Origin: a virus
Reading direction: 5' to 3' (one strand)
IMG/VR virus record: IMGVR_UViG_3300043409_002246
Location: 11,415 to 75,414 of that record
Length of the DNA: 64,000 nucleotides
The notes under the pieces are model-generated. The model saw only the letters and a list, made by a program, of their open reading frames with translations. It was not told the origin of the DNA and ran no database searches. Position numbers and translations under genes: made by a program. This document shows, piece by piece, positions 33,905 to 43,810 of the stretch. Every line of letters begins with the position of its first letter. The stretch's first letter is position 1.

Positions 33905-36900
33905 ATGTCTTCACTGATTGATACTAATCGGATCGCCGATCCGGCACCTGAACCTCTGTCCATGAACATCCCCGACCCGGGACTGGCGCCGCTTCCGGCT
34001 CCGCCTGCCGGCGGATTCCAGATGTTGCCCCTGCCGGTTGCGCCCGTGGCGCCGGTTGCGCCCGCCGAGCCGTGGAGTCCGCCTGACGAAATTTCGGGAC
34101 TTCCCGGGACGGAGTCGTGGAGTCCGCCTGACGAAATCTCGGGGATAGAGTCCGCCGAGCAGTGGAGCCCTCCCGAGGCAGATGTTGCTCTCGAAAAGAT
34201 TCGTTCTTATTCCCCGGAGAAACTCGCGGAGATGGCAGAGCCGGAGCGACAGGCACTTTGGGCGGAGGTTCGGGATTTCGCGCCGCCGGACGATCTGAAG
34301 AAACTGGCAGACGCTTCTGCGAAACACCGCGCCATCGGGCTAACCCCCAAGATCGTCGCTGAAGGCGTCGCCGGGACGCTCGGCACTTTGTGGAAAATGG
34401 GAACCAGTCTGGTGCAGGCCGGTTGGTCGGCTACCCACCTTCCCGGTCCTTCCGACATCAAGAAGATTCTCAAAGCTACCTCGAAAGATGAAGCCTTGAA
34501 AATCTTGGCCGACGTTAGCACCCGCTCTGACGCGGAACTCGTGTCGGGGTTGTCCACTGCCAGCGCCAACGCGGTTATCCTCGCCCGGGATGCGATTCGC
34601 GAGATTGTGAATTTTGAGCCCCCGGTAGGTAAGGCCCTCGGCATCCCCGGGACCCGGGACATCCTGAGCGCCGTGACGGGAACCGACCTTACAAAGCGCC
34701 TCGGAGCCGACGTTTCCGACCCTGAGAATTTTCTCGAACCGGAGGACAACGTAAAGCGTTTTCTGAACGATTTCGACGCCGCTGACGCGGTGAATAAAAC
34801 CGCCGAGGGCCAGTCGGTGTTCTCCGAGTGGCTCGGGATGGATGCCGCAGAACTGAAGAAGCAGGACATCGAGATCAACCCCGAGGCCATCGAAGGCTTC
34901 GGAGTCGCGCTCGACATTACGAATTTGGTCCCGGCCTTGGGAGCGTTAAAGTCGCTCAAGGTCGTAAAGCTGGCGGGGGTTGGAAACGCCGCCGCGCGGT
35001 CGGCGCTGGTTGACGAAGCCGGAAAAGTCTATCTCACCACGGCGAAAGAAGGAACCGCGCTTTTCATGGCGCAAAGGCTCGCGCAAAAGGCAGCAGCGGG
35101 AGTTGCCGCTGTCGGTGACGCGGCTGCTAAGTTCGGTAAGCGAGCCTTCCAAAGCAAGACCGTCGGGGCAGGCGCCTTTGGAGCGTTAGCGGCAGGTCAT
35201 GCCGCCACGGCGGGTAAAGCGGCGGCGCTTGCCGGCGGAACCATGTTGTCGGGCAAGGCCGTCGCGGGCATCGCCCGGATGGCCGGCAGTCAAACCGCCA
35301 TAAATTTTGCAACCGACGTGGGAGTCTCCGCGCTCAAGGGAGCCAAAGGCGGGTTACTGTTCGGCTTGCCGCTGGCGGCGCTGACGGATGACCCGGAGAA
35401 GCAAGTTGCAATGGCGACTATCGCGCCGGCAATCGGCGGAGTAATCGGCGGAGCGATGGGCGGAGCTACCGGCATCAAACGCGCGGCGCTGGCCAAGACG
35501 GAGGCCATCAACCGGACGATTCTCAAGAACGCGGAGCAACTCGGAGACGTTGATCCGGCACAGCCGCACGATCTCGCGGTCGAAGGCCATGAAGCGGTCG
35601 AGGCCATGCACCGGGAGAATCAGTCCAAGATCGCGGACGACAACAGTCGCAACCGGGTGAACATCGTCCGGCGGCTTGCTGAAAAATTGGGACGGCCAAT
35701 GTATGTCGTCACTCCCGATCAGTTTGCCGCTCTTGGAGTCCGGGCAGCTTCGGGCGTGGCTGACCATCCAATCAACGGCAAGCCGGCCATGTTGGTCAAG
35801 CTCAATCCCGACGGAAGTCTCCCCGCGCTCGGTCACGAATTGGCTCACCCGGTCCTCGATTCTTTTAAGGCGGAGAATGCCCCCGAAGGCATGGCCCCGG
35901 AGATGGTTGCTCTGCGCCAACGGCTGCACGATGAATTGATGGCGTCCTTCAGGAAGCGCAAGGTTGGCGCGATGGAGGCGGACATGAACTCGACGCTTGT
36001 CAAGGCCGTCAAGGCGGCGCAAGTTGCCCTCGCTGAGAGGCCCGAGAGCGCGCGGCTTCAAATCAAGTTGGCCGAGGCGCAGGCCGCTCTCCAAAAGGAA
36101 GGCATCAACCTCGGTCAAGGTGCCGAAGAACTGGCTGCTGAAGCTCTCACCGTCGTAATGGAAGGCCGGGGGCTCACCGGCGACGTGAAGTTCACTCCGG
36201 AAAACGCCAGCGCGGCTAACCGTCTATTTTTGTCGTTGCTCGAAAGTCTCGGGTTGGTCAACGATCAGGTGCTCGCGCGCTTGCCCGAGGGAATGGATCG
36301 CAAGTCGAACGTATCGCCGGGCCAAGAGGTCGAGCACACGCAACGCTCGATTCGCGCCGCGCAGGCGCTTTGGGATAATTTTCACGACAACCCGCTAATC
36401 AAAGAGGCGCTGGCCGACGCGGGCGGAACCCCCGAAGCACCCGCAGCGCCCGACGCTCCGGTCGCTCCCGTGGTGCCGGACAATGCGGCAGCAATCGCCG
36501 CGCGGCTCGCCGAACTGAAGAAGTCCGGCACGCACACCCTCGCGCAGAAGCTTCTCGACAAATTCAATCGCGGTGAAGTGCTGACGCCGGACGAGCAAGC
36601 CAACTTTGACACGTTTTTCGGCAAGCTCAATCTCGGCAAGCCGGCTCAACCGGTGATCGCTCCCGTGGCTCCCCAGCCGATTCCTCCGGTAATCCGGGGA
36701 GTGAAGCCTACCCCTCCGTTTAACCCGGGCAGCAAAGAACTCAACGGGCTCAACATGCCCCTCGGGACCGATGTTCCCGTAAATCCCGTGACACCCGGGG
36801 CGCCTCCGGTAATTGAAGCGCCCAGCCGGCGGGGGCAGACCTCCGCAGATTTTAACAACCCCGCGCGGGACGCGGCAGACGCGGCGACGGCGGCTCAGGC

Positions 36901-43810: not shown

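Follow-up and report, generated by a model that had tools for sequence, protein, structure and literature searches.

We analyzed a 64,000-nucleotide (nt) stretch of viral DNA (the window), bases 11415-75414 of the 75,414-bp virus record IMGVR_UViG_3300043409_002246, which CheckV rates as complete. All positions are given in window numbering. The source of the phage is a freshwater metagenome; sediment metagenomes from other studies also contain parts of the gene described here. This gene is a single open reading frame (ORF) for a giant polyvalent protein of 3,301 amino acids (aa). Its ATG at 33905 matches Met1 of 22 of the 24 aligned homologues, and an in-frame GTG is present upstream at 33821. 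We found that a five-residue peptide recurs at the borders between the modules of this protein, that related phages carry their own versions of the peptide at equivalent joints, and that it is probably a site of proteolytic processing. The gene is laid out as follows.

33905..43810, + strand: giant polyvalent protein gene, single ORF, 3,301 aa
33905..37789, + strand: conserved N-terminal region, putative carrier, aa 1-1295 (alignment of 24 homologues)
37790..38149, + strand: module 1, 120 aa, no family match
38150..39451, + strand: module 2, 434 aa, radical SAM enzyme (PF04055, E 1e-13, aa 1618-1778)
39452..40243, + strand: module 3, 264 aa, ART-PolyVal-like ADP-ribosyltransferase (PF18760, 29.5 bits, cut-off 31.2)
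40244..41350, + strand: modules 4 and 5, 150 and 219 aa, paralogous GNAT acetyltransferases (Pfam, aa 2156-2217 and 2286-2345)
41351..42532, + strand: modules 6, 7 and 8, 106, 125 and 163 aa, no family match; module 8 is modeled as a well-folded alpha/beta domain
42533..43807, + strand: module 9, 425 aa, conserved C-terminal DUF7178 module (PF23802, aa 3117-3208)

Nine copies of one peptide lie in a single protein

The motif [FY]MA[ED]K occurs nine times in frame in the giant protein, at aa 1296, 1416, 1850, 2114, 2264, 2483, 2589, 2714 and 2877. All nine coordinates given in an initial annotation of this DNA were exact, as were the lengths of the first eight modules; the last is 425 aa rather than 424. 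The number of copies expected from composition is 0.005, and none of 20,000 shuffles contained more than one. Neither the other five frames of the window nor any of the 77 other ORFs of the 75,414-bp genome contain the motif; these ORFs include those from a 625-aa ORF (4694-6571) through to the tail fibers. The nine junctions are listed below, where P0002 and P0003 are homologues and X4 is a metagenome run considered further on; pLDDT (predicted local distance difference test) values are from an AlphaFold2 (AF2) model.

37790..37804, + strand: junction 1, FMAEK, at the end of the conserved N-terminal region; equivalent of the AG-F-x-P of the family
38150..38164, + strand: junction 2, FMAEK, before the radical SAM module; PIR-FQPEK in P0003 and PAR-FQPKA in P0002
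39452..39466, + strand: junction 3, FMAEK, after the radical SAM module; relatives have FQP, QFAP or QFSP, then different modules
40244..40258, + strand: junction 4, FMAEK, between the ART-PolyVal-like domain (Pfam, aa 1869-2102) and the first GNAT domain (aa 2156-2217)
40694..40708, + strand: junction 5, FMAEK, between the two GNAT modules; left end of a 657-nt skip in X4
41351..41365, + strand: junction 6, FMAEK, right end of the 657-nt skip; SKVDPNQKFMAEKT is common to junctions 5 and 6
41669..41683, + strand: junction 7, FMADK, left end of a 375-nt skip in X4
42044..42058, + strand: junction 8, FMADK, right end of the 375-nt skip; pLDDT is <56 in the stretch around it, and a folded domain follows directly
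42533..42547, + strand: junction 9, YMADK, in the middle of a 46-residue stretch with pLDDT <50, flanked by two domains with pLDDT >90

The junctions coincide with module borders

Pfam domains, stand-alone homologues, homology breakpoints and a structure model agreed in placing the motif copies at domain boundaries, which bears out the initial annotation on this point. Each Pfam domain is confined to one motif-delimited module, a different one in every case, and a single ORF holds radical SAM, ART-PolyVal-like, two GNAT and DUF7178 domains; no polymerase domain was found in the protein with Pfam. The ART-PolyVal match is below the Pfam cut-off, yet the precomputed domain list includes it. We found 83 proteins of 238-760 aa homologous to the radical SAM module, and many of these are stand-alone proteins of 370-430 aa. 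Of the 62 stand-alone homologues that do not exceed 450 aa, the majority stop no more than about 5 aa from junction 3, and the majority of stand-alone homologues start about 43 aa past junction 2. When the giant protein was compared with 138 homologous giants by BLAST, 47-48% of the ends of high-scoring segment pairs fell within 12 aa of a motif copy; for random positions the figure was 11%. In an AlphaFold model of aa 2700-3301 (mean pLDDT 83.6), junctions 8 and 9 lie in low-confidence linkers. In having a short site repeated where autonomous domains meet, the arrangement resembles that of a polyprotein.

Some close homologues of the radical SAM module are parts of giant proteins and others are encoded by genes of their own, on contigs of up to 122 kb; certain sources label them MiaB-like or YgiQ-like. 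The model of module 9 has an HhH-GPD glycosylase-like fold that closes with a ~45-residue helix. Its best match in VIA was the 8-oxoguanine glycosylase Tm1821 of Thermotoga (Z 8.9, 185 aligned residues), and the next 19 rows all belong to the same superfamily, with queuine-salvage DUF2419 among them. The structural neighbors of module 9 in BFVD are annotated as polyvalent proteins of uncultured phages.

The region upstream of junction 1 contains a Gly/Ala-rich hydrophobic stretch at about aa 385-535 and a strongly conserved segment at aa 1000-1295, which ends in ...TTAAG directly before the junction. We infer that this region acts in delivery. A search of the ESM Atlas with aa 1000-1300 returned no usable match. 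At the extreme N-terminus, a PVAPVAPVAP run is followed by three tandem W-S-P-P-[DE] repeats (34070-34190, aa ~56-95; PWSPPDEISG, SWSPPDEISG and QWSPPEADV). At 34031-34072, contigs from metagenome runs X1, X2 and X4 have go-back joints or loose ends, a sign that the copy number of this repeat may vary.

The junction peptide is a local version of a probable family-wide code

The giant homologues found first numbered 67 and ranged from 1.8 to 5.3 thousand residues. IMG/VR contained 497 related loci, mostly on 70-75 kb contigs and one with terminal repeats, and the zincin domain described below was present in 337 protein clusters (50% identity). Family members share an N-terminal region of about 1,200-1,300 residues that ends in AG-F-x-P. 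FMAEK is repeated in none of the homologues, and no close relatives of the FMAEK type were found in IMG/VR (searched with a DNA pattern) or in JGI metagenome contigs (searched with protein). The relatives carry other words at the same places. Where PAR-FMAEK opens the radical SAM module here, P0003 has PIR-FQPEK and P0002 has PAR-FQPKA. At the end of the module, the KPAA-FMAEK of this phage corresponds to KPAA-FQPKT, AAQFAPSK, SAQFSPRK or EAQFQAPR elsewhere, followed by different modules. At the first junction of the 24 aligned proteins, G1295 is present in 24/24, F1296 in 23/24 and Pro at position 1298 in 23/24 (Ala here). The first-junction tripeptide of 207 members was FQP in 93, FLP in 48, FMP in 16, FAP in 9 and FKP in 7, with others making up the rest and FMA found in this phage only. 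Distant members have the related words DIR-F/Y/R-M-P, DIRY-S/A-A and G-Q-A/S-Q-P.

Each member also tends to repeat its own version. The tripeptide of the first junction recurred downstream on average 2.6 times in the 150 members with an HExxH site and 5.05 times in the 19 with HDxxH (~0.2 expected), and its recurrence between cargo modules was about 13-20 times above expectation. In a tree of 159 rows, built from the 297 residues that precede the first junction, at least 36 changes were counted at the middle residue of the junction. In comparisons of phylogenetically independent pairs with different first junctions, the dominant downstream version differed in the same direction in 5.5 and in the opposite direction in 0 of 8 pairs for Q versus non-Q (median p 0.06), in 5.3 and 0 of 8 for L (median p 0.06), and in 2.5 and 0 of 6 for M (median p 0.5). 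Each of these tests is marginal taken alone; a simpler count of agreement between the first and downstream versions gave 32 matches in 59, against 11.8 under the null. The version has therefore changed repeatedly on the tree, and the downstream joints have followed.

Across 24 related genes, 493 of 1,005 pairs of junction codons were identical, against 421.5 expected from codon usage, and in one gene five different codons encode the Leu of FLP. The variety of junction codons comes close to the prediction from codon usage, which indicates that selection acts on the peptide rather than on the DNA. In the giant gene itself, the wobble variation reported initially was seen for the Ala and Lys codons and not for Phe (TTC in 8/8) or Glu (GAG in 6/6).

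The relatives keep the linker at the same joints, each in its own version, which is the pattern expected of a recognition signal. From these sequences, it appears that something reads the junction peptide with a preference that differs between lineages, and FMAEK is the local version of a family-wide junction code. Because an equivalent peptide stands at the same joints in hundreds of related phages, it is probably a cutting signal.

The initial annotation had offered a different role for the motif, in which translation starts internally at each M-A-[ED]-K to give separate proteins from one mRNA. An ATG is present in every motif copy, as this would require. We nevertheless reject internal initiation as extremely improbable because almost all junction versions lack Met (FQP, FLP, FKP, FSP, FEP, FRP and QAQP among them); in addition, no consistent Shine-Dalgarno sequence lies upstream of the ATGs, and the conserved Phe/Tyr before the Met would be left unexplained. 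Two further candidates were dropped. An N-degron created by a new N-terminal Phe does not serve as a general explanation, as some lineages have Ala, Ser, Gln or Arg (QAQP, QSQP, RMPE), and ribosome pausing does not fit a motif that in the giant protein has no Pro.

A word of the family type was also seen in another protein of this phage. An 810-aa ORF (8859-11291) has a ~95-residue C-terminal extension (about 10965-11230), present in this phage alone, with two copies of PPSIQRQxE...G-F-[Q/V]-P-AT, and the first copy contains AAG-FQP, the canonical junction word of the family. Homologues of the 810-aa protein in five relatives with different versions are 703-725 aa long and have neither the extension nor a version-matched motif.

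Modules are lost or gained at the junctions

Contigs from X4, a sediment run of another study, revealed cassette turnover in the lineage of this phage. One 544-nt contig joins 40668 to 41326; the 657 nt left out are exactly module 5 (219 aa), and 255 nt align on the shorter side of the joint. A second joins 41671 to 42047 and lacks 375 nt, exactly module 7 (125 aa), but its shorter side has only 51 nt and its depth is low. Both joints fall inside repeated motif DNA, where the exact repeat identity in the reference is 20 nt for the first skip and 15 nt for the second. Because these repeats are shorter than the word of the assembler, an assembly artifact would not be expected. Modules are thus lost or gained precisely at the junction in this lineage, as the initial annotation had anticipated, and the occurrence of module-sized deletions in other metagenomes suggests that the cargo set varies within natural populations.

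These joints bear on whether the motif is mainly a DNA-level recombination joint for cassettes, with a peptide that has no function of its own. Besides the exact skips of modules 5 and 7, the invariant TTC and GAG codons of the giant gene fit this explanation, and close relatives differ in module order exactly at the joints. Against it, codons vary across the 24 genes almost as codon usage predicts, most versions have just three conserved residues (9 nt), which is too short for homology-driven exchange, and the nearest relatives of the modules carry another version, so that exchange with them cannot use motif DNA. We consider such a purely DNA-level role quite improbable. Instead, because junction codons vary freely, we read cassette loss as a consequence of the repeated peptide and not as the reason for it. 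The earlier suggestion of a role for short DNA homology holds insofar as the X4 skips join inside motif DNA; selection on the DNA word TTCATGGCnGAnAA itself is made less likely by the variation of the codons and by the FQP of the nearest relatives.

Other features of the metagenome runs concern the same modules. GNAT modules 4 and 5 end in the same 14 residues, SKVDPNQKFMAEKT, with 38 of 39 nt identical (40640-40708 and 41297-41365), which points to a recent duplication or to a repeat used for deletion of module 5. In the probable source run, X1, depth falls from about 12 to about 7.5-9 across modules 1-3 (37877-40193), where the assembly is in short contigs, and this hints that part of the X1 population carries other cassettes there. 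Contigs of runs X2-X4 leave parts of the gene uncovered, an observation to which we attach no meaning. No RNA run is listed among the sequencing runs that contain the gene. Weak joints in X3 (41676 to 42151 and others, with a shorter side of 20-33 nt, and 37873 to 37979 with 90 nt) and one joint in X1 (39498 to 43664, 21 nt) were not used.

The N-terminal region contains a conserved zincin-like domain

The conserved region upstream of the junctions holds a putative metallopeptidase site, of which the HELAH and EELAAE sequences had been correctly noted.

35582..36394, + strand: zincin-like domain, aa 560-830 (AF2 model, pLDDT 72.7)
35834..35848, + strand: HELAH (H644, E645, H648), putative zinc site
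36125..36142, + strand: EELAAE (E742, E746), putative third-ligand helix

In the AF2 model, three strands are followed by the HExxH helix, then a helical insert and lastly the ExxAE helix; about 94 residues separate HExxH from the distal Glu. Among 141 representative clusters, H644 and H648 are present in all 141, E742 in 140 (one has Asp), and E746 is Glu in 127 and Asp in 14; in the 24 aligned homologues, E742 and E746 are both invariant. The domain thus has the gluzincin arrangement of an HExxH helix and a third Glu on a later helix, both conserved. The base position (E645) is Glu in 125 of the representative clusters and Asp in 16, with no other residue found. Because only these two residues occur there, the site argues for a working hydrolase rather than decay, with the junction peptide as a candidate substrate.

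The Asp variants form a clade with HDxxH, mostly of the FLP version (P0062, P0064, L010, L018, L032, L040 and L051, in addition to the 16 representative clusters), which retains both His and the distal Glu. In VIA, the modeled domain was most similar in fold to the N-domain of anthrax lethal factor (LF; Z 6.6), the Pro-Pro endopeptidases PPEP-3 and PPEP-2 (Z 5.3 and 5.0) and the LF catalytic domain (Z 4.8). Foldseek gave E values of 0.08-1 overall, with collagenase G and MATCAP at 0.08-0.3. A complex prediction of the zincin domain with a 45-residue junction peptide scored 0.00 and is evidence neither way.

Proposed processing of the chain

We hypothesize that the conserved ~1,300-residue N-terminal region, with its hydrophobic Gly/Ala-rich segments and zincin-like metal site, is a carrier, which would be packaged in the virion and injected along with its cargo. 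The cargo would be the variable string of self-contained modules that follows (radical SAM, ADP-ribosyltransferase-like, two GNATs and several of no known family), and the conserved HhH-GPD-like module ends the chain. The joints are each marked by a single short peptide within a flexible linker; it reads F/Y-M-A-E/D-K in this phage and F-x-P in relatives, where x is uniform within a protein and differs between lineages. This peptide would be a signal recognized by a protease, which would cut the chain there into separate proteins. The zincin of the chain is the leading candidate protease, and it may cut at or beside the aromatic residue, during or after delivery. Embedded MPTase domains have likewise been proposed to release the domains of polyvalent proteins (PMC5512222). 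Since the motif lies in no other protein of the genome, a dedicated protease would fit.

On the sequence evidence, we think it fairly probable that the junctions are processing sites for a protease of some kind. That the processing is done by the zincin of the protein itself is a plausible but tentative assignment, and several observations weigh against it. The fold matches are middling (Z about 5-6.6), and the domain matches neither a Pfam peptidase family (39 members searched with) nor any PDB entry by sequence or profile. The residues of the HExxH helix do not co-vary with the motif version; a simple pairing of version with helix residues was accordingly rejected. The HDxxH clade keeps strongly repeated junctions, the most uniform of all, and a few members with HExxxH or EExxH, among them L028 (EEMGH) and P0011 (HEIIGH), keep the repeated junction as well. 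Cleavage in general is also called into question. Some adjacent modules are kept together across relatives, and not every joint need be a functional break. Moreover, the N4 vRNAP, the most thoroughly studied of the giant virion proteins said to carry an MPTase, is packaged and was purified unprocessed (PMC5512222; PMC13492108).

Some of these observations would be explained if the junctions were cut by another protease, either a head-maturation or other protease of the phage or one of the host, while the zincin acted elsewhere, for example on a target in the cell envelope or host at entry. The failure of the HExxH helix to follow the motif version and the repeated junctions of L028, P0011 and the HDxxH clade favor this explanation, and head proteases of the T4 and phiKZ types do process packaged internal proteins. 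Head proteases usually mark several head proteins, however, whereas here the motif is absent from every other ORF of the genome, and the five homologues of the 810-aa protein show no version-matched motif. No protease was recognized among the 30 neighboring ORFs scanned, although most of these have no family match, and a host protease would not account for lineage-specific versions that changed at least 36 times. We therefore regard another protease as unlikely, and a general head-maturation protease as less likely but still a candidate, since most structural genes here have no family match.

Alternatively, the chain may remain uncut as one multi-enzyme polypeptide, and the peptide may be read without cleavage, as a docking, threading or unfolding signal in packaging or tail passage. 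N4 vRNAP functions unprocessed, the linkers around the motif are disordered, as they also are around short linear motifs that are not cleaved, and several neighboring modules are inherited together, all of which would suit an intact chain. No candidate reader is known, however. The modules match autonomous stand-alone enzymes that end at the joint, the joint peptide resembles viral polyprotein sites in being uniform, lineage-specific and repeatedly rewritten, and a conserved metal-hydrolase site lies in the same chain. An uncut chain is in our view rather unlikely, and we continue to favor processing at the junctions.

In its fullest form, the favored explanation is that the phage family has a self-contained, programmable polyprotein for effector delivery, that an M34-like zincin in its carrier region cleaves a junction code rewritten, together with its reader, dozens of times, and that in some lineages the junction also serves as microhomology for the loss or gain of entire cassettes in natural populations. 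We regard this combination as doubtful.

Genomic context

The giant gene is the last large gene of a plus-strand tail-fiber block. It lies directly downstream of genes on the same strand with tail-fiber matches in PHROGs, that is, among late and structural genes, and is followed by an integrase gene on the opposite strand. When 30 neighboring ORFs were scanned with PHROGs and Pfam, the structural side gave tail-fiber matches only, and most of the ORFs had no family match at all. Two ORFs were considered further: the 449-aa ORF at 11615-12964, for which a PDB sequence search was empty, and the 625-aa ORF at 4694-6571, which has no family match and just 22% identity to Salinibacter phages. Searches of GenBank phages by megablast and tblastn with the whole gene, the N-terminal region and the C-terminal part found no match, and a scan of genome collections matched only contigs of metagenome-assembled genomes, assigned to many phyla. 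The phage is a member of a large uncultured family of roughly 70-75-kb tailed phages.

Discussion

The giant protein can be compared with several systems in which effectors are carried in one chain or released by proteolysis. MARTX toxins of Vibrio and relatives are giant chains with a delivery region and variable effectors that are swapped by recombination, and the effectors are freed after delivery by an in-cis protease that cuts short inter-domain sites. If our proposal is right, these toxins would be the nearest functional analogue. MARTX toxins use a cysteine protease activated by inositol hexakisphosphate, have glycine-rich repeats and are exported by type I secretion into eukaryotic cells; the phage protein has none of these traits and carries a zincin-like site instead.

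Packaged phage effectors are also known to be cut. The T4 protease gp21 acts on IPI-III and Alt, and the inner-body proteins of phiKZ-like phages are processed similarly; these substrates, which include an ADP-ribosyltransferase, are cleaved at short phage-specific sites. The head-protease site also marks capsid, scaffold and other head proteins, and it ends in Glu. In the giant protein, by contrast, the motif is confined to one protein and shared with no other protein of the phage, and the motifs of its relatives (FQP, FLP) have no acidic residue.

As to the candidate protease, M34 zincins (anthrax lethal factor and the Pro-Pro endopeptidases) provide the best fold matches of the modeled HExxH domain. 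An F-x-P substrate would be in keeping with their cleavage beside sites that are aromatic or contain Pro. Unlike them, the domain described here has a ~94-residue spacing between HExxH and Glu with a helical insert, and the likeness reaches Z values of only 4.8-6.6 without sequence similarity.

N4 provides a precedent for delivery of a giant protein. Its vRNAP (gp50) has about 3,500 residues in a phage of about 70 kb, is said to have an N-terminal MPTase, and is packaged and injected (PMC13492108; PMC5512222). It differs from the giant protein in being unprocessed and in its central RNA polymerase, of which no counterpart was found here, and tblastn against GenBank phages revealed no relative of the giant protein.

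The giant protein itself belongs to the polyvalent-protein class of phages and conjugative elements described by Iyer, Burroughs, Anand, de Souza and Aravind in 2017 (PMC5512222). Like other members, it combines many unrelated enzymatic domains (ART-PolyVal-like and GNAT) and a zincin-like site in one polypeptide and is encoded among late and structural genes; delivery with the DNA and release by a peptidase have been proposed for the class. It departs from the class in that its zincin matches no Pfam model, MPTase-PolyVal included, and the fixed frame of an N-terminal carrier and a C-terminal DUF7178 module is specific to this phage family. The 2017 work drew an analogy to the polyproteins of RNA viruses and describes no junction peptide or cleavage site (PMC5512222), and in the literature searched we found no paper describing a junction motif for polyvalent proteins or for this family. 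Unlike polyvalent proteins as published, the giant protein has a defined peptide at every joint, equivalent across hundreds of relatives and rewritten in concert. The polyprotein proposal left the cleavage sites undefined, and this family offers exact sites that can be tested: nine in one protein, equivalents in hundreds of relatives, and a conserved candidate protease in the chain. If confirmed, processing at these sites would reveal a way for a tailed phage to deliver, together with its genome, an enzyme set that can change (radical SAM, ADP-ribosyltransferase, acetyltransferases and glycosylase-like), and the family could provide a natural set of short, mutually distinct (orthogonal) protease-site pairs.

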